This document shows, piece by piece, positions 384-60,541 of a stretch of 64,000 bases of DNA (position 1 is its first letter; every line of letters begins with the position of its first letter). A program made the translations under genes and the position numbers. The stretch lies in sequence record MF327009. The stretch is one strand, 5' to 3'. Below the pieces are notes generated by a model. That model did not search any database, was not told where the DNA came from, and saw nothing but the letters and a program-made list of their open reading frames with translations. Source of the DNA: Shigella phage Sf25.

Positions 384-2897
384 TCATAATTTACAGGATG
401 AACAATCTTCAGCTTTTGGAGTTTCTATTTCATAATCATCAGTACCAGAACCGTCACGGGTATTATGATAATAGAAATTTTTTCCGCCAAAATACCAAAA
501 ATATAAAAGGTCATCAATCATTATTGACATTGGAACCTTTCCTTTTGGAAAAATCTGCGGGTCATAATATGTATTAGCTGAAGCTGATTGACATACCCAT
601 TTCAGCATAATAGCTACTTGCGTAAGATAAGGTTTATTGCCTTTCTTAGCTAATTTCCACGTATAATCATAGAGGTCTATGTTATGCTCAATATTGGGCA
701 CGACTTGATTAAAGGAACCCTCTTTTGATTCTTTAACAGAGACTGGTCCACGTGGAGGCTCGATACCGTTTGTACTGTTAGAAACTTGGGAAGATGACTC
801 ACATGGCATAAGTGCTGATAATGTGCTATTACGGATGCCAAAGAGCTTAAGGTCTTCCCGCAGCGACGACCAGTCACAAACGTATTTTGGAGCTGCGATT
901 TGGTCAATCTTTTTATTGTACCAGTCGATAGGTAATTCGCCTCGAGACCAACGAGTGTCTGAATAATATTCGCAAGGTCCTTTTTCTTTGGCGAGCTTAA
1001 TGGATGCTTTAATGAGTCCATACTGTAATCTCTCAAATAGTTCATGTGTTAAATCGTTAGCATCTTCATAAGAAGCAAAATTACTTGCCAGCCAAGCTGC
1101 ATAGTTAGTAACACCTACACCAAGATTTCGACGCTTTTTAGCTTTTTCTGCTTCAGGAACTGGATATCCTTGGTAATCCAAAAGATTATCAAGAGCACGA
1201 ACTTGGACTTCTGCCAATTCATTAATTTTATCTTGGTCTTGCCAATCAAAGTTATCTAACACAAATGCAGATAACGTACACAATCCAATTTCAGCATCAG
1301 GACTATTCACATCATTTGTTGGAATAGCAATTTCACAGCACAAGTTGCTCTGACGAATAGGTGCCTTTTCACGAATAAACGGAGTATAGTTATTCGTATT
1401 ATCTATGAACTGTACATAAATCCTTGCTGTTCCTGAGCGTTCAGTCATGAGCAATTCAAATAGTTCACGGGCTTTAATACGCTTTTTACGAATATTAGGG
1501 TCTTTTTCTGCTGCTTCGTATAATTCACGGAAACGGTCTTGGTCTTTAAAATAAGAATAATAAAGCTCGCCACCCATTTCATGCGGACTGAACAAAGTAA
1601 TGTAATCGTTCTTTCCGAATCGTTCCATCATCAAATCATTCAGCTGAACACCATAATCCATATGACGGATACGGTTTTCTTCTACACCTTTGTTATTTTT
1701 CAAAACGAGAAGATTTTCAACTTCCAAATGCCAAATAGGATAATAAGCAGTAGCAGCGCCGCCACGAATTCCACCCTGTGAGCATGATTTAACAGCAGTC
1801 TGAAAATGTTTCCAAAAAGGAATAACACCAGTATGGCGTACTTCACCTGTGCCAATCTTAGAACCTTCGGCACGAATCATACCAACGTTAATACCAATTC
1901 CATAATCCATATGACGGATACGGTTTTCTTCTACACCTTTGTTATTTTTCAAAACGAGAAGATTTTCAACTTCCAAATGCCAAATAGGATAATAAGCAGT
2001 AGCAGCGCCGCCACGAATTCCACCCTGTGAGCATGATTTAACAGCAGTCTGAAAATGTTTCCAAAAAGGAATAACACCAGTATGGCGTACTTCACCTGTG
2101 CCAATCTTAGAACCTTCGGCACGAATCATACCAACGTTAATACCAATTCCAGCGCGTTTGGAGATATATTCAACAATTGAAGCAGAAGCCTTATTGATAG
2201 ACTTTAATGAATCACCTGCTTCAATAACAACGCATGAACTAAACTGCCGAGTTGGAGTACGGCAACCAGCCATAATAGGAGTTGGCAGTGAAATCTGTCG
2301 AGTAGATACTGCTTCATAAAAACGGATAACGTGTTTTAATCTATCAACAGGTTCATCTTGATGCAATGCCATTCCAATAGTCATAAATGCAAACTGTGGA
2401 GTTTCATAAATTTGACCAGTGGTTTTATCTTTAACTAGATATTTTTCTTTTAATTGCATCGCCCCGGAATAAGTAAATTCCATATCCCGCTCGTGCTTAA
2501 TTTTTGATTCTAAAAATGTAATTTCTTCGGCAGAATATTTTGACAACAATTCAGGGTCATATTTACCTTCATTTACACAGTAAGAAATGTGGTCAATAAA
2601 TGAACGTGGTTCATACTGCCCATAAACATGCTTACGAAGAGCGAACATTAAACAGCGTGCAGCTACATATTGATAATCAGGCTCTTCAACTGAAATAGAA
2701 TTCGCAGCAGCCTTAATTACAATGGTTTGAATGTCATCAGTTGTCATTCCATCACGGAGATATGATTTAATATTTTCATATAATTCATAAGGATCTACAG
2801 ATGTTCCTTCAGCTGCCCAAGATAAAACTTTAATAATTTTTTGCGGGTCAAAGCTCTGAGAAACACCACTACTTTTGATAACATTAATTAATTGCAT
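384..2897 (-). CDS. nrdA: Aerobic ribonucleotide reductase large subunit NrdA; 837 aa including an 83-aa in-frame internal tandem duplication
   Basis: ORF track 837 aa; class I RNR alpha sequence; peptide GIGINVGMIRAEGSKIGTGEVRHTGVIPFWKHF...ENRIRHMDY occurs twice in tandem. Confidence 0.9.
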   Translation of the reverse strand: MQLINVIKSSGVSQSFDPQKIIKVLSWAAEGTSVDPYELYENIKSYLRDGMTTDDIQTIVIKAAANSISVEEPDYQYVAARCLMFALRKHVYGQYEPRSFIDHISYCVNEGKYDPELLSKYSAEEITFLESKIKHERDMEFTYSGAMQLKEKYLVKDKTTGQIYETPQFAFMTIGMALHQDEPVDRLKHVIRFYEAVSTRQISLPTPIMAGCRTPTRQFSSCVVIEAGDSLKSINKASASIVEYISKRAGIGINVGMIRAEGSKIGTGEVRHTGVIPFWKHFQTAVKSCSQGGIRGGAATAYYPIWHLEVENLLVLKNNKGVEENRIRHMDYGIGINVGMIRAEGSKIGTGEVRHTGVIPFWKHFQTAVKSCSQGGIRGGAATAYYPIWHLEVENLLVLKNNKGVEENRIRHMDYGVQLNDLMMERFGKNDYITLFSPHEMGGELYYSYFKDQDRFRELYEAAEKDPNIRKKRIKARELFELLMTERSGTARIYVQFIDNTNNYTPFIREKAPIRQSNLCCEIAIPTNDVNSPDAEIGLCTLSAFVLDNFDWQDQDKINELAEVQVRALDNLLDYQGYPVPEAEKAKKRRNLGVGVTNYAAWLASNFASYEDANDLTHELFERLQYGLIKASIKLAKEKGPCEYYSDTRWSRGELPIDWYNKKIDQIAAPKYVCDWSSLREDLKLFGIRNSTLSALMPCESSSQVSNSTNGIEPPRGPVSVKESKEGSFNQVVPNIEHNIDLYDYTWKLAKKGNKPYLTQVAIMLKWVCQSASANTYYDPQIFPKGKVPMSIMIDDLLYFWYFGGKNFYYHNTRDGSGTDDYEIETPKAEDCSSCKL
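1651..2148. repeat. Exact direct tandem duplication, 2 x 249 bp, inside nrdA (boundaries ambiguous by about 3 nt)
   Basis: Sequence beginning cataatccatatgacggatacggttttcttc recurs at 1652 and 1901 with no mismatch seen by eye. Confidence 0.9.
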
Positions 2898-2915: not shown

Positions 2916-3271
2916 TCGTCTTTAAACAATCGGTTAACTATATGAGCTATTATATCACCATGACACGGCTTTGGTTTACATGTGCATCCTAGCCTCATTC
3001 CACGTAAAGGCTCTAAATGTGCTTTAGTTATTTCTCCGGATTTAATTCGACGTATAAAATCTTTTTTGAATAATTCAATGGCAGCCTCCCGGCTCGTCTT
3101 TAAACAATCGGTTAACTATATGAGCTATTATATCACCATGACACGGCTTTGGTTTACATGTGCATCCTAGCCTCATTCCACGTAAAGGCTCTAAATGTGC
3201 TTTAGTTATTTCTCCGGATTTAATTCGACGTATAAAATCTTTTTTGAATAATTCAATGGCAGCCTCCCGGC
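2916..3271. repeat. Exact direct tandem duplication, 2 x 178 bp, spanning the 3' end of a small ORF just upstream of the nrdA start
   Basis: cgtctttaaacaatcggttaactatatgagc... recurs at 2917 and 3095. Confidence 0.9.
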
Positions 3272-3392
3272 TGCCAGCATCTTTACCGACGTAATTTCCC
3301 CAAAATGTACCACGGTGAATATTAACATCAAAGTCGGATTTATATTTATTCACTACCCGGCATAGACGGCCCGCGCGGTTGTAGGTGTTCAT
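3075..3392 (-). CDS. Hypothetical protein (Cys/His-containing); C-terminus altered by the 178-bp duplication
   Basis: ORF track 105 aa; in the duplicated copy the frame ends ...[11 protein letters not shown], while a single-copy reading would give ...RLFKDDFQVEDLCN overlapping the nrdA ATG. Confidence 0.5.
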
Positions 3393-7303: not shown

Positions 7304-8212
7304 TTAAAGGTCATTCAAAAGGTCATCCAGGTCCGTGTCATCAGCACTAGATGAACTGCCAGAGCTTGAGCTCATAAAATCATCTTCAGTTTTTGTATTG
7401 AAGTCATCAACATTGAATGCATCCAAATCATCAGCAACTTTATCAGCTTTCTTAGCGGCAGTTGCTGCGGCACCGCCCATCACAGCAGTTCCCATAACTT
7501 GACCGAATTTAGTGCTCAGTTCTTCAAACGATTTGAATTTATCTTTAGAAGTCATTTCAGAAAGGTCAACCATTTGTTCGAACAGTTCTTTCTGGAAAGA
7601 TTCATCATCAATGTTTGGAATCGCAGATTGATTCAGGAATTTAGATTCATCGTAGTTACTAAATCCAGAAACCTGTTTAACTTTCAGTACAAAGTTAGCA
7701 CCTTCCCACGGACAAGTTACATCAACCGGAGTTTCACCCATTTCAACATCAACCGCAATCATCGCGTTGATTTTATCCCAGATTTTCTTACCGAAACGAT
7801 ATTTAAATACTTTACCTTCATTTTCTGGAGCAGCTGGGTCTTTTACAACAAGAATATTAGCCCAGTAAGAAGTTTTACGTTTAACAAGACTGTACTCTTT
7901 ATTGTCAGTGTTATACAGATCATTTTTACTAATGTATTGACATACTGGGCAAGAATCGTAATCACCGTGGGTAGATGAACAATTTTCGATATACCATTTA
8001 CCATTTTTCTTGAAACCGTGATTTACAAGAATTGCGAATGGTGCTTGTTCATCATTTTTAGACGGAAGAAAACGAATTACTGCTTGACCGTTACCCGCAT
8101 TGTCGAGTTTCAGTTTCCACTCGCCTTTATCTTCAGAAGAAAAACCACCTTTATTTCCAGCCAGTTTAGCCATTTGTGCAGCGAGTTCAGCAGTAGATTT
8201 ACGTTTAAACAT
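7304..8212 (-). CDS. 32: Single-stranded DNA-binding protein gp32
   Basis: 302 aa; gp32 sequence with Zn-binding Cys/His and acidic C-terminal tail. Confidence 0.93.
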
Positions 8213-8310
8213 TTTTATTTCCTTTTTAATTTAATTAACAGTTGGTGCTATGACGATGTATGACCTCATAGCTGGTCAGTGAGATAATTATAATCTATTT
8301 ATAATAAGCA
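8213..8310 (-). promoter_or_regulatory. Gene 32 5' control region: A/U-rich leader (candidate autoregulatory operator) plus overlapping late (TATAAATA, 8296-8303) and MotA-box-like middle promoter elements
   Basis: Minus strand reads TTGCTTATTATAAATAGATTATAAT ... AATTAAATTAAAAAGGAAATAAAAATG. Confidence 0.5.
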
Positions 8311-8311
8311 A

Positions 8312-9136
8312 TTAATACTTGCAAGATTTCACAGTTTCAATAAAAACTTTTTTAGCTTCCTGTGAATCAATATTTAAAATTTTTCTATAAGCCTTTAACT
8401 TTATAGAATAATTATTCCAAACTAAATTATCAGTTTGTTGATCATGTTTATCAATTATATTTAAAAACGAATCAAGCAAGATAAACGTCTCAAACGAAAT
8501 TATGTTCGATTGCAGAAGTTTAAAAATATAACTTGACTGAACTTTTGGATTATACTCAAAAATTTCTTTAAAAGCAGAAACTTCAACTTTTTTACTAAAA
8601 TAATAAATGTTGCGAATATCTTCTTCAAACTTAAATTTAATTTGCTTTAAGCGTCCGATATATTCACGATAAAACACAAGTGCATCAGCGTCAGAGATGT
8701 CACCAATCCAAGCATCTTGGTTAGCAACCAAATTGCTTATAAAGATTAAAGCAAGTTCCTTTAATTTATATTTTTCTGATAACTTCTGGAAAAAATACTT
8801 ATCCCTTCGATTAGTTTTTTCACAACGAACAACAGAAGGACGTAAAAGATTTTCGTCGATAGCTTCTGACTGAATTTTTTCAATTATACCCGAAGGAATA
8901 AATTTAGCAAATTGAGTTTCAGGAATAGAATTTTCTTCTAAGAACGCTGTTGTAGCTTCAAGATAACTCATTCCAAACTCTTCTACCATTTTTTCAATAA
9001 TAAATCCATTTTCTTGGCGGTCAAGAAGCTTTGCTATTTCATCCTTTTCTTTCTTAATTGAAAGTTCTTTTTCTGAAAGACCGGTCTCATCGACCGGACG
9101 AATATCATTTAGAGAAAACTGTGTCATAAAGTTCAA
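8312..9136 (-). CDS. Apparent in-frame fusion ORF: acidic N-terminal part (gp33-like late transcription factor) joined to basic C-terminal part (gp59-like helicase loader)
   Basis: 274 aa; junction near 8806-8812 (...RCEKTN/RRDKYFFQ...); only one ORF between dsbA and gene 32 where T4 has two genes. Confidence 0.55.
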   Translation of the reverse strand: MNFMTQFSLNDIRPVDETGLSEKELSIKKEKDEIAKLLDRQENGFIIEKMVEEFGMSYLEATTAFLEENSIPETQFAKFIPSGIIEKIQSEAIDENLLRPSVVRCEKTNRRDKYFFQKLSEKYKLKELALIFISNLVANQDAWIGDISDADALVFYREYIGRLKQIKFKFEEDIRNIYYFSKKVEVSAFKEIFEYNPKVQSSYIFKLLQSNIISFETFILLDSFLNIIDKHDQQTDNLVWNNYSIKLKAYRKILNIDSQEAKKVFIETVKSCKY

Positions 9137-9374
9137 CTACCTCTTCAGTTTCAGCTTCAAACACATCACGGTTATCTTTATGATACAAAGCTAACAGACG
9201 ATTAAACATCTTACCATCAACGCCAAGTTCATCTTTGGCACGAATTCGAATATCTTTAATCAATTCATTATAACCAGAAATTTTCAGTTTATGATCAGAT
9301 GCTTCTTTAATAAATTTAGCTAAGTCTTCGCCATGGATAGCTTCATCAAATTCAACCATTTCTTTTTTAGCCAT
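9105..9374 (-). CDS. dsbA: dsDNA-binding protein DsbA (late transcription enhancer)
   Basis: 89 aa; position between rnh and gene 33. Confidence 0.75.
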   Translation of the reverse strand: MAKKEMVEFDEAIHGEDLAKFIKEASDHKLKISGYNELIKDIRIRAKDELGVDGKMFNRLLALYHKDNRDVFEAETEEVVELYDTVFSK

Positions 9375-9382
9375 TATTCACC

Positions 9383-10300
9383 TCAAAATTCATTAATGCT
9401 ATTAGTTAATTTAGAAAGACCCGCTTTTACAAAATATGAATAAATTTTGCCACGCGGTGGTAATTTATATGAATTATAGTAATTCACAATGTTTGAAGCA
9501 ATATTATCAGGAATATAATCAAAATCAATTAGAACTAAATTTTCTTTATAACGATTATATTCAGATTCAGTGAGAAGCACCTTAGCTTGCTCACGGTCAT
9601 TAGCAATAGCTTCAACAATAGAGGTTTTCATTGAAGGAGTTCGTTCACCTTCAACTCTAGTAAACCAAAAGTCAGACCGTACTTTAACTGAAGCAACGTT
9701 ATCCTTTTTGTCACCTTTAAGGATTTTAGTCATACAGTCAATTTCAGCAGAACCGCTTTTAATTTTAACCCATTTCTTGTGCATCGGTGACCATTGCTTA
9801 ACATTTGGGTATTTATGAAGTTGAGTAAAGTCACCATCCGATGAAATGATTAAAATCTTGTGTCCTTCTAAAGAGAACTTTTTAACAAGAACAGCAATAT
9901 GGTCATCTGCTTCATACTTATCAATATCCATAACAATGTATGGCATATAAGCTTTCAATTCATCTATAACTTTATGACTGGATTCAAAATAACCTTCCCA
10001 GTCCCAAGTAGATTCTTCTCGTGCTTTTCCACGGTTTTTCTTATAATAATAAGCAAAATCACGACGCCAATATCCAGATTTCGCGTTATCAATACACAAT
10101 ACAATTTTAGTGTATCCAAGAGCTTTTGCTTTTTTGACATTAAACTTAATTGAGTTCAATATCAAATGACGAACCATTGATAAATTAATTTTTTCTTTAT
10201 CTGGAAAGTTTACCAAAGCAGTTGAAAGCGCAATTTGACTAAAGTCAATTAAGCAGATTCCTTCTTTGTAATCTTCATCCAGCATCATTTCTAAATCCAT
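9383..10300 (-). CDS. rnh: RNase H (5'-3' exonuclease / flap endonuclease)
   Basis: FEN-family sequence; probable start MDLEMML at 10300 (305 aa) with GAGG RBS. Confidence 0.9.
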   Translation of the reverse strand: MDLEMMLDEDYKEGICLIDFSQIALSTALVNFPDKEKINLSMVRHLILNSIKFNVKKAKALGYTKIVLCIDNAKSGYWRRDFAYYYKKNRGKAREESTWDWEGYFESSHKVIDELKAYMPYIVMDIDKYEADDHIAVLVKKFSLEGHKILIISSDGDFTQLHKYPNVKQWSPMHKKWVKIKSGSAEIDCMTKILKGDKKDNVASVKVRSDFWFTRVEGERTPSMKTSIVEAIANDREQAKVLLTESEYNRYKENLVLIDFDYIPDNIASNIVNYYNSYKLPPRGKIYSYFVKAGLSKLTNSINEF

Positions 10301-10329
10301 ATGAACCTCGTTCAATTAGTGAGATTTCT

Positions 10330-10359
10330 ATTATATACCATCCGAATCTTAAAGTAAAC
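10330..10359 (-). promoter_or_regulatory. Putative early promoter for rnh (GTTTAC-N18-TATAAT)
   Basis: Reverse complement GTTTACTTTAAGATTCGGATGGTATATAAT. Confidence 0.5.
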
Positions 10360-10362
10360 AAG

Positions 10363-10370
10363 TATAAATA
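10363..10370 (+). promoter_or_regulatory. Late promoter TATAAATA for gene 34
   Basis: Exact TATAAATA about 35 nt upstream of the gene 34 ATG. Confidence 0.65.
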
Positions 10371-10404
10371 CTTATTATTGAAAACACAATAGGAGCCCGG
10401 GAGA

Positions 10405-13400
10405 ATGGCCGAGATTAAAAGAAAGTTCAGAGCAGAAGATGGTCTGGACGCAGGTGGTGATAAAATAATCAACGTAGCTTTAGCTGATCGTACCGTAGGA
10501 ACTGACGGTGTTAACGTTGATTACTTAATTCAAGAAAACACAGTTCAACAATATGATCCAACTCGTGGATATTTAAAAGATTTTGTAATCATTTATGATA
10601 ACCGCTTTTGGGCTGCTATAAATGATATTCCAAAACCGGCAGGAGCTTTTAATAGCGGACGCTGGAGAGCATTACGTACCGATGCTAACTGGATTACAGT
10701 CTCATCTGGTTCATATCAATTAAAATCTGGTGAAGCTATTTCGGTTAACACTGCAGCTGGTAATGATATTACATTTACTTTACCATCTACTCCAATTGAC
10801 GGTGATACTATCGTTCTCCAAGATATTGGAGGAAAACCTGGAGTTAACCAAGTTTTAATTGTAGCTCCAGTACAAAGTATTGTAAACTTTAGAGGTGAAC
10901 AGGTACGTTCAGTACTAATGACTCATCCAAAGTCACAGCTAGTTTTAATTTTTAGTAATCGTCTGTGGCAAATGTATGTTGCTGATTATAGTAGAGAAGC
11001 TATAGTTGTAACACCAGCAAGTCTCTATCAGGCGCAATCTAATGATTTTATCGTACGTAGATTTACTTCTGCTGCACCAATTAATGTTAAACTTCCAAGA
11101 TTTGCTAATCATGGCGATATTATTAATTTCGTTGATTTAGATAAACTGAATCCACTTTATCATACAATTGTTACTACATACGATGAAACGACTTCAGTAC
11201 AAGAAGTTGGAACTCATTCCATTGAAGGCCGTACATCGATTGACGGTTTCTTGATGTTTGATGATAATGAGAAATTGTGGAGATTGTTTGACGGGGATAG
11301 TAAAGCACGTTTACGTATCATAACGACTAATTCAAATATTCGTCCAAACGAAGAAGTTATGGTATTTGGTGCAAATAACGGAACAACTCAAACGATTGAG
11401 CTTCAGCTTCCAACTAATATTTCTGTTGGTGATACTGTTAAAATTTCCATGAATTACATGAGAAAAGGACAAACAGTTAAAATCAAAGCTGCAGGTGAAG
11501 ATAAAATTGCTTCTTCAGTTCAATTGCTGCAATTCCCAAAACGTTCAGAATATCCGCCTGAAGCTGAGTGGGTTACAGTTCAAGAATTAGTTTTTAACGG
11601 TGAAACTAATTATGTTCCAGTTTTACAGCTTGCTTATATAGAAGATTCTGATGGAAAATACTGGGTTGTACAGCAAAATGTTCCAACCGTAGAAAGAGTA
11701 GATTCTTTAAATGATTCTACTAGAGCAAGATTAGGCGTGATTGCTTTAGCTACACAAGCGCAAGCTAATGTCGATTTAGAAAATTCTCCGCAAAAAGAAT
11801 TAGCAATTACTCCAGAAACATTAGCTAACCGTACTGCTACAGAAACTCGTAGAGGTATCGCAAGAATAGCAACTACTGCTCAAGTGAATCAGAACACCAC
11901 ATTCTCTTTTGCTGATGATATTATCATTACTCCTAAAAAGCTGAATGAAAGAACTGCTACAGAAACTCGTAGAGGTGTTGCTGAAATTGCTACGCAACAG
12001 GAAACTAATGCAGGTACTGATGATACTACAATCATCACTCCTAAAAAGCTTCAAGCTCGACAAGGTTCTGAATCATTATCAGGTATTGTAACCTTTGTAT
12101 CTACCGCGGGAGCTACTCCAGCTTCTAGTCGTGAATTAAATGGTACAAACGTTTATAATAAAAACACTAATAATTTAGTTGTTTCGCCTAAAGCTCTAGA
12201 TCAGTATAAAGCTACTCCAACGCAGCAAGGTGCAGTAATTTTAGCAGTTGAAAGTGAAGTAATTGCTGGACAGAGCCAAGAAGGATGGGCAAATGCGGTT
12301 GTAACGCCAGAAACGTTACATAAAAAGACATCAACTGATGGAAGAATTGGATTAATTGAAATTGCTACACAGTCTGAAGTTAATACAGGAACTGATTATA
12401 CTCGTGCAGTCACTCCTAAAACTTTAAATGATCGTAAAGCAACTGAAAGTTTAAGTGGTATAGCAGAAATAGCAACACAAGTTGAATTCGACGCAGGCGT
12501 CGACGATACTCGTATCTCTACACCATTAAAAATTAAAACCAGATTTAATAGTACTGATCGTACTTCTGTTGTTGCTCTATCTGGATTAGTTGAATCAGGA
12601 ACTCTCTGGGACCATTATACCCTTAATATTCTTGAAGCAAATGAGACACAGCGTGGTACACTTCGTGTGGCTACACAAGTTGAAGCTGCTGCAGGAACAT
12701 TAGATAATGTTTTAATAACTCCTAAAAAGCTTTTAGGTACTAAATCTACCGAATCGCAGGAAGGTGTTATTAAAGTTGCAACACAAACTGAAACTGTTGC
12801 TGGTACATCATCTAATACTGCTGTATCTCCAAAGAATTTAAAATGGATCGTGCAGAGCGAACCTACTTGGGCAGCTACAACGGCTATAAGAGGATTTGTT
12901 AAAACTTCTTCTGGTTCTATTACTTTCGTTGGTAATGATACTGTTGGTTCAACACAACCTTTAGAATCATATGAAAAAAATAGCTATGCTATATCTCCAT
13001 ATGAATTAAACAGAGTATTAGCTAACTATTTACCATTAAAAGCCAAAGCAGTTGATAGTAATTTACTCGATGGTCTAGATTCACTCCAGTTCATTCGTAG
13101 GGACATCGCCCAGACAGTTAATGGATCACTAACCTTAACGCAACAAACGAATCTGAGTGCCCCTCTTGTATCATCTAGTACTGCTACGTTTGGTGGATCA
13201 GTTTCTGCTAATAGTACATTGACTATTTCTAACACAGGAACAGCTACTCGACTGATTTTTGAAAAAGGACCTCAGACTGGAACAAATCCGGCTCAAACGA
13301 TGACTATCAGAGTTTGGGGAAATGAGTTTGGAGGTGGTTCTGATACATCACGTTCAACTGTATTTGAAGTTGGTGATGAAACGTCTAATCACTTCTATTC

Positions 13401-14274: not shown

Positions 14275-14282
14275 GAGGTATT

Positions 14283-15398: not shown

Positions 15399-15403
15399 AC
15401 TGA

Positions 15404-15430
15404 GGGAGCCTTCGGGTTCCCTTTTTCTTT
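15404..15430 (+). terminator. Intrinsic terminator or processing hairpin with UUCG tetraloop between 35 and 36
   Basis: GGGAGCC-TTCG-GGTTCCC followed by TTTTTCTTT. Confidence 0.6.
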
Positions 15431-15437
15431 ATAAATA
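15430..15437 (+). promoter_or_regulatory. Late promoter TATAAATA for gene 36
   Basis: Exact TATAAATA 24 nt upstream of the gene 36 ATG. Confidence 0.65.
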
Positions 15438-16134: not shown

Positions 16135-19100
16135 ATGGCTACTTTAAAACAAATACAATTTAAAAGAAGCAAAACTGCAGGTCAACGTCCTGCTGCTTCA
16201 GTATTAGCCGAAGGTGAATTGGCTATAAACTTAAAAGACCGTACTCTTTTTACTAAAGATGACTCGGGAAATATTATTGATTTAAGCATTTCTGCCGGTG
16301 GTAACATTAGTGGAAATATCACTCAAAATGGTGATTATTTACAAAACGGCACGTATAATCTTAATGGAAATCAGTTTGTTTATGCAGGAAAGTATATTGA
16401 ATTCTTGCCAAAAACTGCTGGAAATGGTGCTTGGGCAAATCAGCACACAAATAAAGCTCCAATTTTCACCGATTTGAGTTCAACTACTTCAACTTCTGAA
16501 TATCATCCGCTAATTAAACAACGTTATAAAGATGGAACGTTTTCATTAGGGACTTTAGTTTCTGAAGGCTCAATGAAGATACACTATATCGATGAAACTG
16601 GCACTTCAAAATATTGGACTTTCCGACGTGATGGTGGTTTTGTTGTTGATAGTGGTAGTTTAACTGTTACTGCTGGAAACATATCTGCTTCAGGCAATAT
16701 TAATTCGGCATCAGGGGTTGTTTCAGCTCCTCAAATTAATACAAAAACCATTGTTTTAGATACAAAAGCATTTGGACAATATGATTCGCAGTCATTAGTT
16801 CAGTATGTTTATCCTGGCACTGGCGAAACAAACGGTATAAACTATCTTCGTAAAGTTCGCGCAAAATCAGGTGGTACAATTTATCATGAAATAGCTTCAG
16901 CTCAAAGTGGAAAAAGCGATGAAATTTCGTGGTGGACTGGAAATACAGCCGTTAATAAACAAATGGGTCTTCGTAATGATGGTGCAATGGTATTACGTCG
17001 TTCACTTGCTATTGGCACAATTACTACAGATGAAAACGTAAATAACTATGGATCTGCTGGAGCAATGGGAGAAAAATACATTGTTCTTGGAGATGCGTCA
17101 ACTGGACTAGCTTATAAAAAGACAGGAGTTTATGACTTAGTTGGTAGTGGTTTATCTGTTGCTTCTATCACTCCCGACAGTTTTCGTAGTACCCGTAAAG
17201 CAATTTTTGGACGTTCTGAAGACCAAGGCGGTACATGGCTTCTTCCTGGTCAAAACGCTGCTCTTCTTTCAGTTCGTACAGATATTGATCAAAATAATAA
17301 CGGTGATGGTCAAACTCATATTGGATATAATAGTAACAGCAAGTTTTATCATTATTTTAGAGGCAGAGGCCGAATGGCTGTTGGAATGGCTGAAGGTCTT
17401 ATTGTTGAGCCTGGAATTTTAGATATTAAAACTGGTTCAAATACTGTTTCTATTAGAGCTGATGGCGGAATTTCATCTACTCAGCGTCTTTCATTGCAGA
17501 ATGGTATATTTTTATCTTCTGACGGAAATAACAACGGTATATCGTTTAAAGCTTCTAGCAGTATAGATGGAACTAAAACTCTTAATTGGGATGCTGGTAC
17601 TCGTGCAGGTCAAAACAAAAATACAGTAATTTTAAAAGCATGGGGAAATTCATTTAATACAAGTGGTGGAACTGATAGACATACTGTATTTGAAGTTTCT
17701 GATTCGCAAGGATACTACTTTTATGCTCAACGTACTACCCCTGCATCCGGTCAAACAGTAGGTCCTATTAATTTTAAATTTAATGGTACTGTAGAAACCG
17801 GTCATATCAATGGATTAGGTAATATTACTTTATCTGGGGCAGTTATAGCAGATTCTGCTAATATTAAAGGACCGCTAAAAATATCTAATGCTAATACAGC
17901 TGATGCTTTTAGAATATGGAACGCTGAATATGGAGCCATTTTCCGTCGTTCAGAAACATCATTGCATATTATTCCTACACTTAAAGATGCAGGGGAAAAT
18001 GGTGGAATAAGTAATCTTCGCCCATTAAGTATTGATCTTTCAAACGGATTTGTGCAAATGCATCATTCTCTTTCTGTGGGGAATACAGTAAGAACGAATG
18101 GATTGTTTGCTGTGGATACTTCAGCTGCTCTTGTTGCAATTAACAGATGTTCCTATTGTGAAACAAAGATACGTTCAAGGGAATAGCACCTATTCATTAG
18201 GTACTTTAATTAATGGTGGTGATTTCCGTTTACATTACCATGAAGGCGGTGACAGTTCTTCAACAGGTGCAGTTATAAAAGATATTTCCTGGGAATTTAA
18301 ACGTAATGGTGATTTCTATTCGCCAGGTCGTTTACGTACAGGAAATATCTATATTGGAACTGATGGTAATATCACGGGTGGTTCTGGTAACTTTGCTAAC
18401 TTGAATACAACTTTAAACCGTAAAGTTAATTCTGGTTTTATTACTTATGGAGCAACTGCAGGTTGGTACAAGTTTGCAACAGTAACAATGCCTCAAGCTA
18501 CATCAACCGTTTCAATTACAGTCACTGGCGGAAATGGATTTAATTCTGGATCATTTAATCAGTGTGCAATTTCTGAAATTGTTCTTCGTACAGGAAACAA
18601 TAATCCTCTGGTGATACATATGACATTTATGTTAATATGGGAACATATGCTAATCAGTTGATATTTAACTATAGTTCTGTTGATAATGCCACAGTTCAAA
18701 TTATTGGCGCATTCAGTTCAGCTCAAAATCCTGTTGATGCATTGCCAGAAACATATGTTAAAGGTCAGGTAGCAGATGTATTGACTAACTTAGTTGATTC
18801 TGGAAAAACGAAGCGTTTTGTTGCTGAATCTGAAATAGCTATTAATAATCAAACTGGATTACGTATTACGAGTAATGGTGATAAATCTGGTTCAAATTCA
18901 GTATTATTCAGAAATGATGGATCAGCGTTTTATATTCTTTTAACAGATAAAAACGCAGCAGATGGAAATACGACTGCCACAGAAGGAGATTGGAATGGTA
19001 AACGTCCTTTCCAAATTAATATGACTTCTGGTGAAGTAACATTCGGAAATAATATTAATATTTCTGGAAACGGAAGCATTACTTGGACAAAAGCCGGAGC

Positions 19101-19800: not shown

Positions 19801-20498
19801 ATGGCAATTGTAGGTGTTCCTGGCTGGATTGGTGAATCTGCCGTGAATGAAACAGGACAGCGTTGGATGGATGCTGCAATGAGAGCAGTCCGTGTTTCAG
19901 TTCCCGGTTGGATGAGCTCAATGGCCGGACAATCTAAAGAAGTATATTATAGCATTGGTGCTAGTAATTCTTATAATAAAGATACATTAATAAACTGAAT
20001 GCATACGTGACACTTAATATCAATTCAGGCGTGCATGTTTGGGGCCGTGGCGGGAATGGCGGAAATAACTCTGCCGGTGGAGCAGGAGGAACTGCAATAA
20101 ATAATGGAATTGGAACTAGATTGCGTATTAACAACAATGGTGTTATCGCAGGAGGCGGTGGCGGCGGTGGAGGCGGATATTATTCTCCTTTTTCACAAAT
20201 GAAATTGACTTTTGGCGGTGGCGGCGGTCGTCCATTTGGTGCTGCTGGCGGGTCTGCTAATATGGAACAGGGCGCTACTGCTGGTACTATTTCTGCACCT
20301 GGTAAAGGGTCTGTCAATGGTATCTATAATGGCGGGAATGGCGGTGATGCTGGTGCCGCAGGTGGTAAATGTAATATTCGTGGGCAAGGATCAGAATATA
20401 ACGGCGGTGCGGCCGGTAAAGCTGTTACTGGTAATGCTCCAACTTGGACTAAGGTTGGTACAATATATGGCCCTCTGATATTCTATTTGGTGTTCTAG
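19801..20498 (+). pseudogene. 38: Receptor-recognising adhesin gp38 (T2-type, glycine-rich motifs), split into two reading frames
   Basis: N-terminal 65-aa ORF (MAIVGVPGWIG...) ends at a stop at 19996-19998; the glycine-rich part (GGGGGGGGYY...) follows in another frame from 20007. Confidence 0.55.
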
Positions 20499-23950: not shown

Positions 23951-23955
23951 TAAAA

Positions 23956-25575: not shown

Positions 25576-25679
25576 TAGTAGATAACAACACAAATGTTAA
25601 ATATGCACACATACCCTGGGCTAAAGCTTGAAATTATTACGATAGAACTGCATCACATGTTCGTTATGGAAATTACTCA

Positions 25680-26529: not shown

Positions 26530-26718
26530 TTATTTTACACCATTCCAAATTGTTTCAACTACAGATTTTAAGCCATTTTGATGAATGTCCATTCCGACTA
26601 CCGCCATCAAATAGATTCCAACTACGTTTAACATATCAATCATTAAAACGATTGGGAATATACTCAAAACTACTAGTATTATAACTACATTCCATATAGC
26701 TTTAATAATCTTTTTCAT
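26530..26718 (-). CDS. Small membrane protein
   Basis: Start MKKIIKAIWNVVIILVVLSIFPIVL with GGAGG RBS; 62 aa. Confidence 0.5.
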   Translation of the reverse strand: MKKIIKAIWNVVIILVVLSIFPIVLMIDMLNVVGIYLMAVVGMDIHQNGLKSVVETIWNGVK

Positions 26719-29330: not shown

Positions 29331-31757
29331 TTAGGCCGCAAGGGCCTTCATAGTTTTAGCGATTTGAGAAACTTCATCATCACTTAAAGAGTTGCGATAA
29401 CCGATGAAGTCGGAAACAATACGGAATTTCTTGGTAAACTCAGCAACCATTTTATCACTGTTTTTTGAAGCATTATTTGATAATACATCAAAAAGATTAG
29501 TTACTGTCCAGATGTCATGACCGATGGTACCTTTTCCACCGTTGAAATATACGCCCCGCAATGAACTAACTATATTAGCGAGTCGTGTATATTCTTCAGA
29601 AACTTCATCTGTACTGAAGTACTTCATCATAAAATCTAGTTCAGGATACTTGATAATTTTATCAATATATCGTTGAGCTGAACTTGAATAACCTACGTAC
29701 TTATCATAATCTACATCATCAAAAGCATCTACATATAAATCACGCAGAGTTTCAAAAATACATTGGCACTGACCGAGTTCTTTTACCTTTTTCTGCAAAA
29801 GCGGACGAATAACATAAAATTCATTAATGCCAATAAGATTAGCCATACGAATCAAAATATTCATAGATGGATGACAAAGAGATGTAGTACCATCCATAGA
29901 GAAAATATCAGAACGATGCATATACGCTACATAACCAGTAATTTCATCTGCTTCTGATGTGAGCGTAAACAGTTCCTCTTTTTCCCATCGCCCATCTTTA
30001 ATTTCAAACTTAAATGCTGTAGCAGCTTTAGGACGAGGAGCTTTACTTTTAACTACCTTTGGAATATAGCTTTTAACTAAAGCTTCAATTTCTGACAAAT
30101 AATGAATGTTAACTTCATCACTTTCAAACATCGCCATAATATCAGGAAGTAAATCAATCTGCGATTCTACTTCTGGATTAATAAACAGAAGACGCTCATT
30201 GTGATGAATATTCAAAGTGTTATTAAATTCACTATCATCTAACGCATGTGCTAATCCACGAACAATATTAACACGATTTTTAATATTATCAATAACGATA
30301 TTAATTTTTGTTGTATTAATACCAAACAGACGATAACTTGATGCAACGGCTGAAGTTTCATGACTTTGCTTAATGCGTTTCAGTCGAGGGTCAAGATTTA
30401 CTTCATACACAACTCCTGCATTGCATAACTTACTGTCAGGTTCAAACATGCTCTGCATCTTTTTATATGACAGATTTTTAGTCGTGAATTTGACTGAATT
30501 ACTAATCATATAATCTCGAGCAGAATATCCCATCTTCATCAATTCACGATATGTGTGACGAGGAGATGTAGATTCTTTAAATCGTTTTACATCTTCATTG
30601 AATGCCTTCTCACTAAGCTCTTTAACACGCTCAATAATATTTTTACGAGTACGATCATCTAGTGAAAGAGCTTCGCGTGATGGAGCAATATCAAGTGAAC
30701 CCATTGGAAACTTAATGTAATTCACTTCATTGCGAATGCTTAGCCAGTTACGGTCTCTAATAACACCATCGATAGGATAAACAATACCGCCATAGATAGC
30801 ATATAATCCACCACGATCAGGCCAGTATCTTTCTGGATTTACACCATAATAATCATCAAAATCAGGAAAATAATCAATTTCAATAATATTTTTACGAGTA
30901 CGATCATCTAGTGAAAGAGCTTCGCGTGATGGAGCAATATCAAGTGAACCCATTGGAAACTTAATGTAATTCACTTCATTGCGAATGCTTAGCCAGTTAC
31001 GGTCTCTAATAACACCATCGATAGGATAAACAATACCGCCATAGATAGCATATAATCCACCACGATCAGGCCAGTATCTTTCTGGATTTACACCATAATA
31101 ATCATCAAAATCAGGAAAATAATCAATTTCGCGGTCAAGACCATTAATGATAGCCAAATCTTTGAACGGTCGCATGATATAAGAAACTTCATAAGCAAAG
31201 TTTCTAAAGTCTTTTTCTTCAACTGGAACTACGATTTCAATACCAGTTTTATCATCTGGACCCATTTCTTTTACGAATGTAGGTTTAATCTGTGGGCCAT
31301 CACCATCCATGTAAGCTACATAACCACGAATTTCACCTTTATGATACGAAGTAATACTAAACGTATCAGTATAACTAAACGGAGATTTAGAACCTAAACC
31401 AAATCCGCCAATAAAGTCATTAGATTCAGCCTTAGATGAACTGAAGTATGAATTATACAGCCCAGGAGAATTATCATCACCCTGAATATCAAAATCACTC
31501 ATACCCGGACCAAAATCTCGACAAACAAATCGTGGATCTAATCGTCCTGGAACTTGAATGATAAATTTTTCAGGATTTCCATTAAGTGCATGAGCATCAA
31601 TCATGTTAGTAATCAATTCACGGACTACTGCGCGAATCTTGTTTGTATACAAATCAGATGACAGAATTTTAAATACTTTAGGATTTGCTGCGATGCTAAA
31701 TGCTTTTGATTTAGAACCATTGCCAAGAATTGTTTCTTTTTCAGTGGTGATAATCAT
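29331..31757 (-). CDS. rIIA: rIIA protein; 808 aa including an 83-aa in-frame tandem duplication
   Basis: N-terminal GHKL-like ATPase sequence; peptide [25 protein letters not shown]...RTRKNII occurs twice. Confidence 0.9.
30632..31129. repeat. Exact direct tandem duplication, 2 x 249 bp, inside rIIA
   Basis: caataatatttttacgagtacgatcatctagtgaaagagc... begins at 30632 and 30881. Confidence 0.9.
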
Positions 31758-41716: not shown

Positions 41717-42163
41717 TTATAGATTAAATCCTTCAAAATCAAGAGTATAGATAGTATATGTTGAATACTTTTTGTACTCATATCTATCTGCAATTCTAAA
41801 TACACTTCCAGCTGGTATCATTACTTCTTGTTCATCTGAAACTAATTCCATATTACGATAACGATGACTATCCGGAAACTTAAAGTTTGGATTGTATTCT
41901 TTACAGCGTAGAGCTTTTATAGCATACTCCTGGAAATTGAATACCATAGGAGCTTTGAATTCAAAAATAACTTGTGTGTTATACTCTAAAATTTCATTTA
42001 ACCAAGTATGGTCATCTGGTTTATTAGTAATACAATGAATTAAAAGTTCAATTTCAGATAAATTAAACCCTTCAGAAAGTAATTCTTCACGAATAGAAGC
42101 ACGCACCGATGCATCCATTGATTTTATTTTAAAATCTTTTAGTTGCATTACTGAGTATTTCAT
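41717..42163 (-). CDS. modA: ADP-ribosyltransferase paralog (ModA-like), shorter than expected
   Basis: 148 aa; catalytic E-x-E region SDEQEVMIPAG paralogous to the upstream ORF; start overlaps the modB stop (ATGA). Confidence 0.5.
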   Translation of the reverse strand: MKYSVMQLKDFKIKSMDASVRASIREELLSEGFNLSEIELLIHCITNKPDDHTWLNEILEYNTQVIFEFKAPMVFNFQEYAIKALRCKEYNPNFKFPDSHRYRNMELVSDEQEVMIPAGSVFRIADRYEYKKYSTYTIYTLDFEGFNL

Positions 42164-42809: not shown

Positions 42810-42839
42810 ATCATATCATCGTTAGAAAGGAAAGTAAAC
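42810..42839 (-). promoter_or_regulatory. Putative early promoter for modB (GTTTAC-N18-TATGAT); part of it is re-created in the adjacent duplication
   Basis: Reverse complement GTTTACTTTCCTTTCTAACGATGATATGAT, then GGAGG RBS. Confidence 0.5.
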
Positions 42840-43228
42840 AACTTTTTGAATTATTTTGCCCAGGGAGCCCAAGGCGGAGGGTCAAGATGGTATGAAGCTA
42901 GTTCTTCTAGAAGAGCATCTGGGGCTTCAATTCCATAATTCTGTAATACTATACGGTACTCTTTCTTATAATCACTAGAATCATTCTGGTTATTCGTAGA
43001 ATGATTATCTTCTAACATTCATATCATCGTTAGAAAGGAAAGTAAACAACTTTTTGAATTATTTTGCCCAGGGAGCCCAAGGCGGAGGGTCAAGATGGTA
43101 TGAAGCTAGTTCTTCTAGAAGAGCATCTGGGGCTTCAATTCCATAATTCTGTAATACTATACGGTACTCTTTCTTATAATCACTAGAATCATTCTGGTTA
43201 TTCGTAGAATGATTATCTTCTAACATCT
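42813..43228. repeat. Exact direct tandem duplication, 2 x 208 bp, covering a promoter/intergenic region and most of a small ORF
   Basis: atatcatcgttagaaaggaaagtaaacaactttttgaattattttgcccagggagccc... begins at 42813 and 43021. Confidence 0.9.
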
Positions 43229-45530: not shown

Positions 45531-46293
45531 TTAATAGCCTCGATCTTGACGAGCGAAGTTTTCAGCATTTTTCAGATAATAAAGTTTAAAGATTTCCTCA
45601 GCTGACATTCCAAGAGCAATGAATTTATTCATGAAAAAGTGAAATTGGTCAATCAGTTCAAATTTAATTTCAAGCTGATCTTCAGGAGATAAGTCTTGAA
45701 TTTTCTTGGATTGCATTTCAGAATAACGTTTCTTCCAAGGTTTCCATACAGCAGAAGCTTCTTTTTCACCATTACTCATACCACCAAGAGAAGTATATAG
45801 CTCGCGAGTTTCATCTGCGATATAATCGTCTTGGTTTCGCAACCAAGCAAGAACTTCTCCTGCAGTTTCAAGTGAATCAGGATGACGATTTGTTTCTGGT
45901 TTATCATTAGCCAAACGAATCTGTAAATGCCGCTGCATGTCAAATTTTCTTGGATTGCATTTCAGAATAACGTTTCTTCCAAGGTTTCCATACAGCAGAA
46001 GCTTCTTTTTCACCATTACTCATACCACCAAGAGAAGTATATAGCTCGCGAGTTTCATCTGCGATATAATCGTCTTGGTTTCGCAACCAAGCAAGAACTT
46101 CTCCTGCAGTTTCAAGTGAATCAGGATGACGATTTGTTTCTGGTTTATCATTAGCCAAACGAATCTGTAAATGCCGCTGCATGTCAAGCATAACCTGCAA
46201 TGGGTCAATACTGTGCATAATATACTCAGCATATGCACGATTTGCTTTATCAACACCTTCGATCAAATGAGCACATTCATTAAAGTGAGCCAT
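45531..46293 (-). pseudogene. 56: dCTPase/dUTPase gp56 (MazG-like) disrupted by a frameshifting 244-bp tandem duplication
   Basis: N-terminal frame MAHFNECAHLIEGVDK... (AAGGAAA RBS) terminates at the repeat junction near 45940; C-terminal part ...ALGMSAEEIFKLYYLKNAENFARQDRGY is in another frame. Confidence 0.6.
45700..46187. repeat. Exact direct tandem duplication, 2 x 244 bp (not a multiple of 3), inside gene 56
   Basis: attttcttggattgcatttcagaataacgtttcttcc... begins at 45700 and 45944. Confidence 0.9.
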
Positions 46294-54536: not shown

Positions 54537-55381
54537 TCACCGTTATAATCTTTTTTCACAATATGAGTTTCGCCAGTATTCCACCAATGATCAACCAAGT
54601 AAAAATGACGAGAATATACATGAAGACTTCCAACATTCCATATAATAGAACCTGCTTTATACTGACGAGTTGAATCGCCGGCATTCAAATCAGATACTAA
54701 TTTATCTAATACGTATTTTTGCCATGCATAATCATTACGGAATCCGAAGACCACGTCATTTGAGCGCATGCTTACTACTGCATTGACTTTCTTATCACGA
54801 ATCAGGTACTGTACTGTATTAGTACACATGAAATCTGACATACCATCTTTATTGTAGTCAAATTGCATGGATGGACGAGTCATGCTTACTACTGCATTGA
54901 CTTTCTTATCACGAATCAGGTACTGTACTGTATTAGTACACATGAAATCTGACATACCATCTTTATTGTAGTCAAATTGCATGGATGGACGAGTATAAAT
55001 CATGATACCACGTCGAGAATCAGGATTTTGACCAAGTTCAGCTAAACACATATCATACTGGGCATAGTTATCTTCTGACCAAATAGCCCAACCATAATTC
55101 GAGTTAATTTCGCCTTTAGAAGATGCTACCTGCTGCCAAATCTTTGGTGTTTCGCCTGGAATATCTTTGACAAACAGACTTTGAGACTTGTACCATTCAA
55201 GTTCACGCTGAATGTATTCATCATTAAGAGCGCCAAAAATAAAGGGTTCATCTGCTACAAATGATGCGCCAATAATTTCAATAGTTTTAACACCGGTTTT
55301 ATCAACTACGAAATCTTTTTCTTTTAATGCAAGCCCCAAATGAAGACGGATTTCTTCAACTGTCATAAAGTCACTAATCAT
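54527..55381 (-). CDS. 42: dCMP hydroxymethylase gp42; 284 aa including a 38-aa in-frame tandem duplication
   Basis: ThyA-like fold sequence; peptide TRPSMQFDYNKDGMSDFMCTNTVQYLIRDKKVNAVVSM occurs twice. Confidence 0.9.
   Translation of the reverse strand: MISDFMTVEEIRLHLGLALKEKDFVVDKTGVKTIEIIGASFVADEPFIFGALNDEYIQRELEWYKSQSLFVKDIPGETPKIWQQVASSKGEINSNYGWAIWSEDNYAQYDMCLAELGQNPDSRRGIMIYTRPSMQFDYNKDGMSDFMCTNTVQYLIRDKKVNAVVSMTRPSMQFDYNKDGMSDFMCTNTVQYLIRDKKVNAVVSMRSNDVVFGFRNDYAWQKYVLDKLVSDLNAGDSTRQYKAGSIIWNVGSLHVYSRHFYLVDHWWNTGETHIVKKDYNGEWK
54767..54994. repeat. Exact direct tandem duplication, 2 x 114 bp, inside gene 42
   Basis: catgcttactactgcattgactttcttatcacgaatcagg... begins at 54767 and 54881. 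Confidence 0.9.
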
Positions 55382-56601: not shown

Positions 56602-59445
56602 TCAGCCAAACAGGAAGTCTAACGAAGCTTTTTCTTCATAGTCCATACCAGCCGATTCACACATGCCTGCAAGCGGTTTAACAAACGATTTTTGGAACAA
56701 AGTTGAGTAGTCAATCCAAGACAGTACGTCAGAACGAATTTCTTTTGGAAGTTCTGTACCCGACGGCCAAGCAATGCATTTGTCACCAAATGGATTTCCT
56801 TCACGCAATGGAAGAACCATTACTTTATTTCCATCCAAAATTGGAGCTACACCTAAACCGCTAACAGCTCGACGATAAGTTAGCACACCACGAATATGGA
56901 ACGGACATTTAAATCCTGGCCAACCTTTATCATCATATTTCGCTATATCGTTCGCAGTTTTTACTTCAGCAATAACTTTATAGTCAAGTTGACGATATTC
57001 TTTCTCGAAGTTCTTGTAATATTCTTGGACAGACTCTTCACCTTCCTGAAGAATACGACGAATACTTTCTTCGAGAGCTTCTTGGACCGCTTTAGGCGTT
57101 GAACTCTGCTGAGTTTCCATACCCATGATTTTTAGATGCGGTTCAGCAAATCGCTTATCTTCCATATCATATACGTTCAGAGCATAACGCTTTTTCGCTT
57201 TCCAAAATCCGCCAACGCCCTTTGAACCAAGTGGAGGGCAAGAAATAGCTTCACGGTCCATATGCATCAGATGCTCGCGGTTATTCATATAATCACATAA
57301 CTCACGATATGCAACATCAATCATAGGTTCCATCTTTTTCTTACCGAACTGATTCATGAATTCAACTAAATCGTTCTGCTCTTTGAATCGGTCAAGACCA
57401 ACTTTTTCAATAACTTTATCTACACAAACATATACCGAATCAGTATCACCTGCTGCAATGAAATCTTCGCCATTAGTTCCGCATACTTTATTCAGATATT
57501 CATTAATTTTACGAGCAATCCACTGAATACCAACTTGGCCGAAAATTGTGATAGCAGTAGCATTTCGCAAATCATAGTAACGGAAATGAATATTACCAAG
57601 AGCACCATAAAGACTGTTAATAAGAATTTTACGGTTCAGCTGATTTGTGTTAGCAAGTGTAGCTGCTTTTTCACACTCTTCGATCAAACTATTAAGAACA
57701 GATTCGGTGTAATTCGATAGTTCATTTAAGAAATCATCACTGAACTTAACATATCGTTCAACTTCTGGTTTAGTTGAGCAAGACCCTGCGCCTTTCATAA
57801 TAATCTTTTTAATAGCTTCGGCATTCATTTCTTCAGCGAACATTTTCTTTTTCCAATCTTTACGCTGGAAAAATACTTTAGCGATTTCCTTTGGAATGAT
57901 ACCTTCTTGATGCTTATCATACATCCATCCATTCGGAGAACAAGAATATTCATCACTCGGTTTAGGAGCTGTTCCTGCGATATATTCATGAATTGGATGA
58001 ACTTTAAACTGACCACGAATAGTCTCAGGACTAATGTTAACCTGACGAATAATGCTCGGATACAGAGACGTCAAGTCAAAACTCATAATATATCGACGAG
58101 CAATTGGTTTAGGTTCAAACACAAATGCACCCGGAAAACTCTGTTTAACGTGCGAACCTTGTTGAGGAATAACCTTATGTTCACCTTTCAATGAGTTAAA
58201 AATAATAGCATCCCAAGTTTTAATAGGACTCATTACACCGGAAAAAGGCATTTTAGCGTAATAAGACATACTTAAAACTAGATCGATAAACCCGCGAATT
58301 TTATCAATTGCTTGAACTGATTCTACGTCAATGATGTTATAACTAATGTATCGTTGATGATTAGTCTCACGAAGTTTATTAATAGGACCGTCGTATGGTA
58401 ATTTACCTTTTTTGGTTTCATGTTGAGCAACTGATTCCAAAGAGAATGACGGCAAATTAGTAAAAGCGAATTTCTTGTACAAATCTAAATAATCAAGAAT
58501 AGATACGCCATCAATAGAATAAATTTCTTTGCTGCCGTACATATTTTGAATTAGTTTGGATTTTACCCGACCGATTGGAGAGAAACGTTTCATACTGCGT
58601 TCGCCTAGAATCATTTTAACACGATTCATGATATATGGAACGTCAAACCCCTCAATATTCCAACCGGTAAAAATAGCAGGTCGTTTCTGTTCCCAGAGAT
58701 TGATATATTCCATGAGCATATCACGCTCATTATCGAATGGCATATAAATTACTCGGTCAAGAATTTCTTGAGGAACTTCATCACCACCTTCACAGTCAAG
58801 CTTAGCAGCTAACTTTGCATCCCATTTTGATACTGAACCGTACATTGAATTCAAAAGGTCGAAAACATAAAAACGATCGTCAATTGAATCGTAATGAGTG
58901 ATAGCATCAATTTCATATTCAGCTTTCATTGGGTCAGGAAATTTATCACCAGTAACCTCAATGTCACAGTTAGCTACACGAACACCGTACATTGAATTCA
59001 AAAGGTCGAAAACATAAAAACGATCGTCAATTGAATCGTAATGAGTGATAGCATCAATTTCATATTCAGCTTTCATTGGGTCAGGAAATTTATCACCAGT
59101 AACCTCAATGTCACAGTTAGCTACACGAACAAATTTTCGGTCATAAACAATTTCTGAACCATATGTATCACTGATATAAGCGAGTTTAAAATCGTTCATA
59201 CCGAGAGCTTCGAGACCGATGTCTTCCATTCGCTTCATCCAATCTCGAGCATCTTTCATTGATGGAAATTTTTGAGGAGCGCAGTTTTTACCATAGATGT
59301 CTTTGTACTTTGACTCTTCCTTACAATGCCTAAACATAGTTGGAAGATATTCTACTTCACGAGTACGTTCCTTTCCATTTTCATCAATATAACGTTCAAC
59401 AATATTATTTCCGACTGTTTCAATAGAGATATAAAATTCTTTCAT
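56602..59445 (-). CDS. 43: DNA polymerase gp43 (family B); 947 aa including a 49-aa in-frame tandem duplication in the N-terminal/exonuclease region
   Basis: Pol B motifs (DxxSLYPS-like FDLTSLYPSII, YGDTDS-like GDTDSVY); peptide VRVANCDIEVTGDKFPDPMKAEYEIDAITHYDSIDDRFYVFDLLNSMYG occurs twice. Confidence 0.92.
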   Translation of the reverse strand: MKEFYISIETVGNNIVERYIDENGKERTREVEYLPTMFRHCKEESKYKDIYGKNCAPQKFPSMKDARDWMKRMEDIGLEALGMNDFKLAYISDTYGSEIVYDRKFVRVANCDIEVTGDKFPDPMKAEYEIDAITHYDSIDDRFYVFDLLNSMYGVRVANCDIEVTGDKFPDPMKAEYEIDAITHYDSIDDRFYVFDLLNSMYGSVSKWDAKLAAKLDCEGGDEVPQEILDRVIYMPFDNERDMLMEYINLWEQKRPAIFTGWNIEGFDVPYIMNRVKMILGERSMKRFSPIGRVKSKLIQNMYGSKEIYSIDGVSILDYLDLYKKFAFTNLPSFSLESVAQHETKKGKLPYDGPINKLRETNHQRYISYNIIDVESVQAIDKIRGFIDLVLSMSYYAKMPFSGVMSPIKTWDAIIFNSLKGEHKVIPQQGSHVKQSFPGAFVFEPKPIARRYIMSFDLTSLYPSIIRQVNISPETIRGQFKVHPIHEYIAGTAPKPSDEYSCSPNGWMYDKHQEGIIPKEIAKVFFQRKDWKKKMFAEEMNAEAIKKIIMKGAGSCSTKPEVERYVKFSDDFLNELSNYTESVLNSLIEECEKAATLANTNQLNRKILINSLYGALGNIHFRYYDLRNATAITIFGQVGIQWIARKINEYLNKVCGTNGEDFIAAGDTDSVYVCVDKVIEKVGLDRFKEQNDLVEFMNQFGKKKMEPMIDVAYRELCDYMNNREHLMHMDREAISCPPLGSKGVGGFWKAKKRYALNVYDMEDKRFAEPHLKIMGMETQQSSTPKAVQEALEESIRRILQEGEESVQEYYKNFEKEYRQLDYKVIAEVKTANDIAKYDDKGWPGFKCPFHIRGVLTYRRAVSGLGVAPILDGNKVMVLPLREGNPFGDKCIAWPSGTELPKEIRSDVLSWIDYSTLFQKSFVKPLAGMCESAGMDYEEKASLDFLFG
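58837..59130. repeat. Exact direct tandem duplication, 2 x 147 bp, inside gene 43
   Basis: accgtacattgaattcaaaaggtcgaaaacataaaaacgatcg... begins at 58837 and 58984. Confidence 0.9.
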
Positions 59446-60116: not shown

Positions 60117-60541
60117 TTACCATTCCAATGCTAGTTTTTTGAGTTGTTTCTGTTCTTTTACGTTCTTAGTCACTTCTTTCAAAAAATCATATCTTCGACC
60201 AGTTTTGCCCATTTACCATATCTTTTACCACGAGGAACTGCAGCCATCAGATAATTAAAATGAGCTTCATCACTTAAGCCTGATCCAATTAAATTCATAG
60301 CATATACAGCTGGCATGCACTCTGGAAATTGTGATAATGCATTTTCAACCATGAATTTTGAATAATCTTTTTGAGCAATAGAGCATTTAGTTTTATTATT
60401 AATAGCTCCAATTATTTCAAAAAATTCATTTTCAGCTTTTTCTTTAAAAGAATCAGCAGCAGATTGGACAGCTGTCCAATCTTTTGAATACCAAGCAACT
60501 TGATGCTCGTTTAATTGAATATCATCTTCAAATAAGCTCAT
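60117..60541 (-). pseudogene. 62: Clamp loader small subunit gp62, disrupted by an internal frameshifting lesion
   Basis: N-terminal frame [22 protein letters not shown]... stops at 60179 (...KLVEDMIF*); downstream, out of frame, [23 protein letters not shown] ends at the regA start. Confidence 0.55.

Follow-up and report, generated by a model that had tools for sequence, protein, structure and literature searches.

The single open reading frame that stands in place of genes 33 and 59 in the deposited genome of Shigella phage Sf25 (MF327009.1; 168,573 bp, labelled a complete genome) is, in our assessment, very probably an artefact of joining sequences in silico and not a lesion of the phage. 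Most likely, genes 33 and 59 of the actual phage are ordinary, the fusion exists only in the file, and it carries no novel biology. We analysed a 64,000-nucleotide stretch of this record (the window; all positions are counted from its first letter). The phage is T4-like (Tequatrovirus), and the affected locus is its rnh-dsbA-33-59-32 block. In the list of ORFs, rnh (9383-10300), dsbA (9105-9374) and gene 32 (7304-8212) all lie on the minus strand. A preliminary description of this DNA had reported that one ORF of 274 aa separates dsbA from gene 32, and the ORF list agrees: a program-made, minus-strand frame with a TTG start extends over 8312..9136, with the neighbours as described. The biological start of this ORF is the ATG at 9127 and not the TTG at 9136. 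Read from this ATG, the frame (8312..9127, minus strand) encodes a product of 271 aa (MTQFSLND...), which is the deposited protein AUV63375.1, annotated as 'DNA replication and recombination protein [Shigella phage Sf25]'.

Pfam searches and alignment divided this product into two parts, both encoded on the minus strand. Positions 8810..9127 encode residues 1-106 of gp33, the body that binds the RNA polymerase (RNAP) beta flap, and positions 8312..8809 encode residues 53-217 of gp59 and the stop. The Trans_coact (gp33) family matched fusion residues 36-106 (E = 1.9e-25; profile positions 1-67 of 73). T4_Gp59_N matched residues 108-163, covering no more than the distal 60% of its profile (positions 38-93 of 93), and T4_Gp59_C was complete at residues 170-273 (positions 1-109 of 109; E = 4e-51). 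The change from an acidic, gp33-like to a basic, gp59-like segment, which had been placed near 8806-8812, was borne out by a pI of 4.5 and a net charge of -9 for the gp33 part vs a pI of 9.1 and a net charge of +5 for the gp59 part, with the join at 8809/8810. The lengths of gp33 (112 aa) and gp59 (217 aa) from which a deletion had been suspected were both correct, and alignment to the reference proteins gave gp33 1-106 joined to gp59 53-217, not two full-length genes.

When the coding strand was aligned with phage JLBYU22, exactly 173 bp proved to be absent at 8809/8810, where the sequence reads ...GAA AAA ACT AAT / CGA AGG GAT AAG... (the slash marks the join). Missing from the fusion are gp33 codons 107-112 (TLDFLL) with the stop, the first 52 codons of gp59, and the ATGA in which stop and start overlap. 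The deletion suggested in the preliminary description therefore holds as far as the record is concerned, as 173 bp present in relatives, including the six codons of the gp33 tip and 52 N-terminal codons of gp59, are gone; that the phage really carries this lesion is most likely incorrect, given about 15 sharp lesions, duplications as well as deletions, that are private to this record and many of which wreck essential genes. The cut is codon-exact on both sides and keeps the reading frame, an outcome with a chance of roughly 1 in 9, and there is zero microhomology at the join. The two genes overlap and are read in different frames, so that removing 173 nt (2 mod 3) happens to bring 33 and 59 into one frame, and gene callers report a single 271-aa protein. 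That the cut preserves both the frame and whole codons might alternatively be a sign of selection or design.

The gp33 part of the fusion resembles T4 gp33 (PF16805) closely: residues 1-106 are about 98% identical to those of close relatives, the beta-flap-binding core is intact, and the gp33 chains of PDB 3TBI and 7D7D match query residues 1-109. However, the fusion lacks TLDFLL (107-112), nearly all of the sliding-clamp-binding motif, which starts at residue 106, and it carries 165 foreign residues where a free hydrophobic/acidic C-terminus is required. The gp59 part likewise resembles T4 gp59 (PF08993 and PF08994; PDB 1C1K), with residues 53-217 98% identical to relatives and a complete C-domain, but it lacks residues 1-52, and with them positions 1-37 of the 93-position N-domain profile, as well as a start codon, a ribosome-binding site (RBS), a Met and any convincing in-frame alternative start. 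Since start codon, RBS and internal Met are all absent, free gp59 could not be made. We take the HMG-like fold of gp59, as seen in the 1C1K structure, to lie in the N-domain. The clamp-binding motif of gp33 is absolutely essential for activated late transcription (PMC2988020). In the engineered gp55-gp33 fusions of the Geiduschek laboratory (PMC2988020) gp33 tolerates the covalent link and still binds the beta flap; in those constructs, however, gp33 is the C-terminal partner and its clamp-binding end is free, whereas in Sf25 the partner replaces that end. Judged by its sequence, the Sf25 fusion would by itself be crippling.

The gp33-gp59 junction is private to the Sf25 record, and the locus is intact in the relatives compared. 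Across about 500 matching Tequatrovirus records, a 101-nt junction query was always split among the matches listed, its two pieces spanning 274 nt (173 extra), and a 3.2-kb query showed the same two-piece split with 173 extra bp among the Tequatrovirus matches listed. Nine further contigs from NCBI, Logan (SRA-derived) and JGI with the closest gp59 alleles had exactly 173 nt between the flanks, and among the NCBI, Logan and JGI contigs with the closest gp59 alleles no intact haplotype was identical to both flanks. A scan of viral contigs with a junction 24-mer gave no match. Scanning metagenome and genome contigs with a junction 17-mer, a pattern too short for collections of that size, gave about 150 matches, all due to chance (at most 36 of 61 bases agreed around the core). 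Among the matches listed from 5.8 billion protein clusters, none covered more than 66% of the fusion and all were ordinary gp59, and an exact look-up for contigs encoding the fusion returned no entry.

The fusion is one of many anomalies in this stretch of the record. Self-comparison of the 64-kb window revealed seven tandem duplications with 100% identical copies, 114-249 bp in length. All seven were absent from the three relatives used for the comparison of lesions (Sf24, GiZh and FriedrichMiescher), and the joints recurred at identical window positions. Lengthened products result in nrdA (1651..2151, period 249; 837 aa instead of 754, AUV63363.1), rIIA (30631..31130, period 249; 808 aa instead of 725, AUV63407.1), gene 42, encoding dCMP hydroxymethylase (54767..54994, period 114; 284 aa instead of 246, AUV63453.1), and gene 43, encoding DNA polymerase (58837..59131, period 147; 947 aa instead of 898, AUV63457.1), and the proteins encoded by these genes contain internal repeats of 38-83 aa. 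Frameshifts result in nrdA.1 (2916..3272, period 178) and in gene 56, encoding dCTPase (45699..46187, period 244), which is split into products of 117 and 135 aa (AUV63439.1 and AUV63438.1) vs 172 aa. The remaining duplication affects the modA.2 region (42811..43226, period 208). At the gene 43 joint, the sequence was contiguous in none of the six best of 556 matching records; these six matches were all 100% identical, with the two halves sharing one overlapping stretch of 148 bp. A repeat of another kind is found in frd.2 (6469-6615, minus strand), where a 66-bp unit occurs as an imperfect tandem repeat (96% identity) and makes the product 22 aa (VSGVTKIHCIVDENNVDE...) longer than in the three relatives. 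Because its copies have diverged, unlike those of the perfect duplications, this repeat is probably genuine.

Megablast comparison of the window with Sf24 showed about 20 sharp jumps in offset, in both directions. Besides the loss at 33/59, there are at least six sharp deletions of 72-173 bp, absent from every relative comparable at the site. Gene 37, for the distal long tail fibre, has lost 173 bp at 18146..18147, with a frameshift that ends the ORF at 683 aa vs 1287 in Sf24. The extra 173 bp were present in all four records that, among the matches listed, cover both halves of this site (the GenBank and RefSeq copies of Sf24, PinkRuby and teqsoen). A deletion of about 72 bp at 20470..20471 removes the end of gene 38 with its stop, the RBS and the first nine codons of the holin gene t; this site is not comparable in GiZh, where gene 38 differs. 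Partial losses are found in the ac/stp region (25630..25633, 134 bp) and in ndd.2a/ndd.4 (26625..26626, 130 bp). Loss of 156 bp at 41990..41991 reduces the modA product to 148 aa instead of 200 (AUV63427.1), and loss of 139 bp at 60190..60191 in gene 62, encoding a clamp-loader subunit, causes a frameshift (120 aa vs 187; AUV63460.1). No microhomology was present at the deletion ends in any of the four cleanly testable junctions, a result expected by chance in about 10% of cases and thus weak evidence, and so these junctions give no pointer to repeat-mediated deletion.

Two further differences from the relatives were noted. At 45498-45499, the window lacks, at a sharp joint, about 331-337 bp that all three relatives have and that comprise two small ORFs located between soc and gene 56. 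This gap, which is longer than the other lesions, could be natural variation in gene content or another join. At 46313-47777, the window and Sf24 carry a dam methyltransferase gene and, next to it, another ORF, both absent from GiZh and FriedrichMiescher, which is ordinary accessory-gene variation.

The window has a mosaic relation to the sister phage Sf24, its closest relative in the collection searched, which is 98.2% identical to it over the first 25 kb. The blocks 8810-18146, 20471-25630, 46187-54767 and 60191-64000 are 99.2-99.9% identical to Sf24, and the remaining blocks of the window are 93.5-98.6% identical. Wherever the end of an Sf24-like block was visible it fell at an anomaly (7/7), and the step in identity to Sf24, pooled over all 15 anomalies, was marginal (Mann-Whitney p = 0.05). 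The deletions in gene 37 and at 33/59 are of equal size (173 bp) and flank the Sf24-like block 8810-18146. At the fusion itself, the gp33 side of the join matches Sf24 at 100.0% over 597 bp and has no mismatch for 1630 bp. For the 597-bp flank on the gp59 side the figures are 97-98.8%, and no record comes closer than Shfl2 (98.8%). Since the final 248 bp on the gp59 side also match Sf24 exactly, a haplotype switch at 8809/8810 would be placed only to within about 250 bp.

At 8213-8311, between genes 32 and 59, the window lacks the segG homing-endonuclease gene that Sf24 and T4 carry there. This looks like a natural, T2-type arrangement, common to JLBYU22, GiZh and FriedrichMiescher. With segG present in Sf24 and absent from the window, we considered SegG homing as the cause of a real deletion at 33/59. 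This explanation was rejected, as it leaves the other lesions unexplained and, as a second ground, SegG cleaves within gene 32 rather than at the border of 33 and 59.

The anomalies belong to the public record and not to our copy of it. The eight aberrant products of the window (AUV63375.1, AUV63363.1, AUV63457.1, AUV63453.1, AUV63407.1, AUV63460.1, AUV63439.1 and AUV63427.1) are byte-identical to proteins deposited for Sf25. Each of these aberrant proteins was found on one contig only, and the normal-length forms on dozens to hundreds of contigs. The window and MF327009 were compared at the protein level, which might leave some room for a synthetic edit or file corruption after deposit with the public record intact. 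However, because the aberrant products equal the deposited ones, the window has not been altered since deposit, and this explanation is refuted.

A genome with this content is not compatible with the phage that was isolated. The record gives genes 37, 56 and 62 with frameshifts and t without a start, genes 42 and 43 contain inserts (repeats of 38-49 aa in the products), and gp33 is without its clamp-binding motif. From the annotated functions and general T4 genetics, no plaque-forming phage could carry all these lesions together. The isolation paper reportedly describes Sf25 as having been obtained by plaque formation. It is also listed in a published table as a virulent myovirus. Because 37, t, 56, 62, 42 and 43 are damaged, a virulent, plaque-isolated Sf25 cannot have the recorded genome.

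We propose that separately assembled pieces were ordered and placed end to end, with overlaps left untrimmed and gaps left unfilled. Where neighbouring pieces overlapped, the uncollapsed overlap would appear as a perfect tandem duplication, here of 114-249 bp; the duplications never exceed about one 250-nt read, although both this read length and the assembler are guesses on our part. Where a short stretch had failed to assemble, abutting the pieces would leave a clean deletion, here of 72-173 bp. The join at 8809/8810 would be such an abutment, between a piece identical to Sf24 that carries gp33, dsbA, rnh and 34 and a piece of a different, segG-less 59-32 haplotype. The source of the pieces could be an assembly that was fragmented or mixed, or else patching with sequence like that of Sf24, and a possible root cause is fragmented or mixed assembly of DNA containing glucosyl-hmC.

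We weighed this concatenation of pieces against two explanations in which the deletion is real. One is that the 173-bp deletion was present in part of the lysate, in defective genomes complemented by intact co-infecting phage, and that the assembler followed the defective form. Deletions do arise in T4-type phages, which do not strictly require gene 59. The record also looks like two haplotypes mixed together, and the sequenced sample may thus have been heterogeneous. We nevertheless regard this as improbable, as the junction is without microhomology, the window contains 14 other lesions of the same size class, and the perfect duplications are not explained by any complementation. In addition, gp33 that has lost its clamp-binding motif continues to repress basal late transcription (PMC2988020), and because of this repression the fusion would be expected to be counter-selected even in a mixed infection.

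Less probable still, and in our view very unlikely, is a viable phage with a natural gp33(1-106)-gp59(53-217) fusion, in which the gp59 C-domain somehow substitutes for clamp binding. The fusion is in frame and codon-exact, and both the gp59 C-domain and the flap-binding core of gp33 are intact, as such a protein would need. Against this, it has lost the essential clamp-binding motif of gp33 and half of the gp59 N-domain, and no spare copy of the gp33 tail or of the gp59 N-terminus was found within the 64-kb window. Nor was the fusion found in the other genomes, metagenomes and protein clusters searched. Functional 37, t, 56 and 62 are also lacking from this record, which therefore cannot, taken as a whole, be that of a viable phage. 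If such a fusion were nevertheless real, late transcription would be possible without the clamp-binding tail of gp33, perhaps with RNA polymerase tethered to replication forks via the gp59 C-domain and its gp32/gp41 contacts. Neither the defective sub-population nor the viable fusion explains the 14 other lesions, and the joining of assembled pieces is the explanation we favour.

The value of recognising this artefact lies in database hygiene, as MF327009.1 and the proteins derived from it are unreliable, and it is of little biological import. Chimeric and internally duplicated Sf25 proteins are now in NCBI nr and UniProt. The fusion supplies the representative ID of UniRef100 cluster A0A2K9VLZ3, 'Late transcription coactivator' (n=5), and the 947-aa polymerase that of A0A2K9VME2, 'DNA-directed DNA polymerase' (n=18). 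Mining T4-like phages for domain fusions, length variation or tandem duplications would yield false positives from MF327009.1. Clustered perfect tandem duplications shorter than a read, together with microhomology-free deletions, all private to one record, can serve as a test for artefacts of this type.

A pan-genome study dropped Sf25, and also SHFML-26, for frameshifts in a number of genes (PMC8056088). SHFML-26 resembles Sf25 in that core genes are frameshifted in the 'complete genome' of a phage isolated as viable (PMC8056088), and its NrdA is also abnormal, a fragment of 397 aa. Sf25 differs from frameshift-ridden T4-like records in that its lesions are not indels of the homopolymer type but duplications with perfect copies (114-249 bp) and clean losses of 72-173 bp, and this type of lesion favours contig joins over base-calling errors. 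In the published table that lists Sf25 as virulent, it stands under a GenBank accession only, and Sf22-24 are given with RefSeq accessions.
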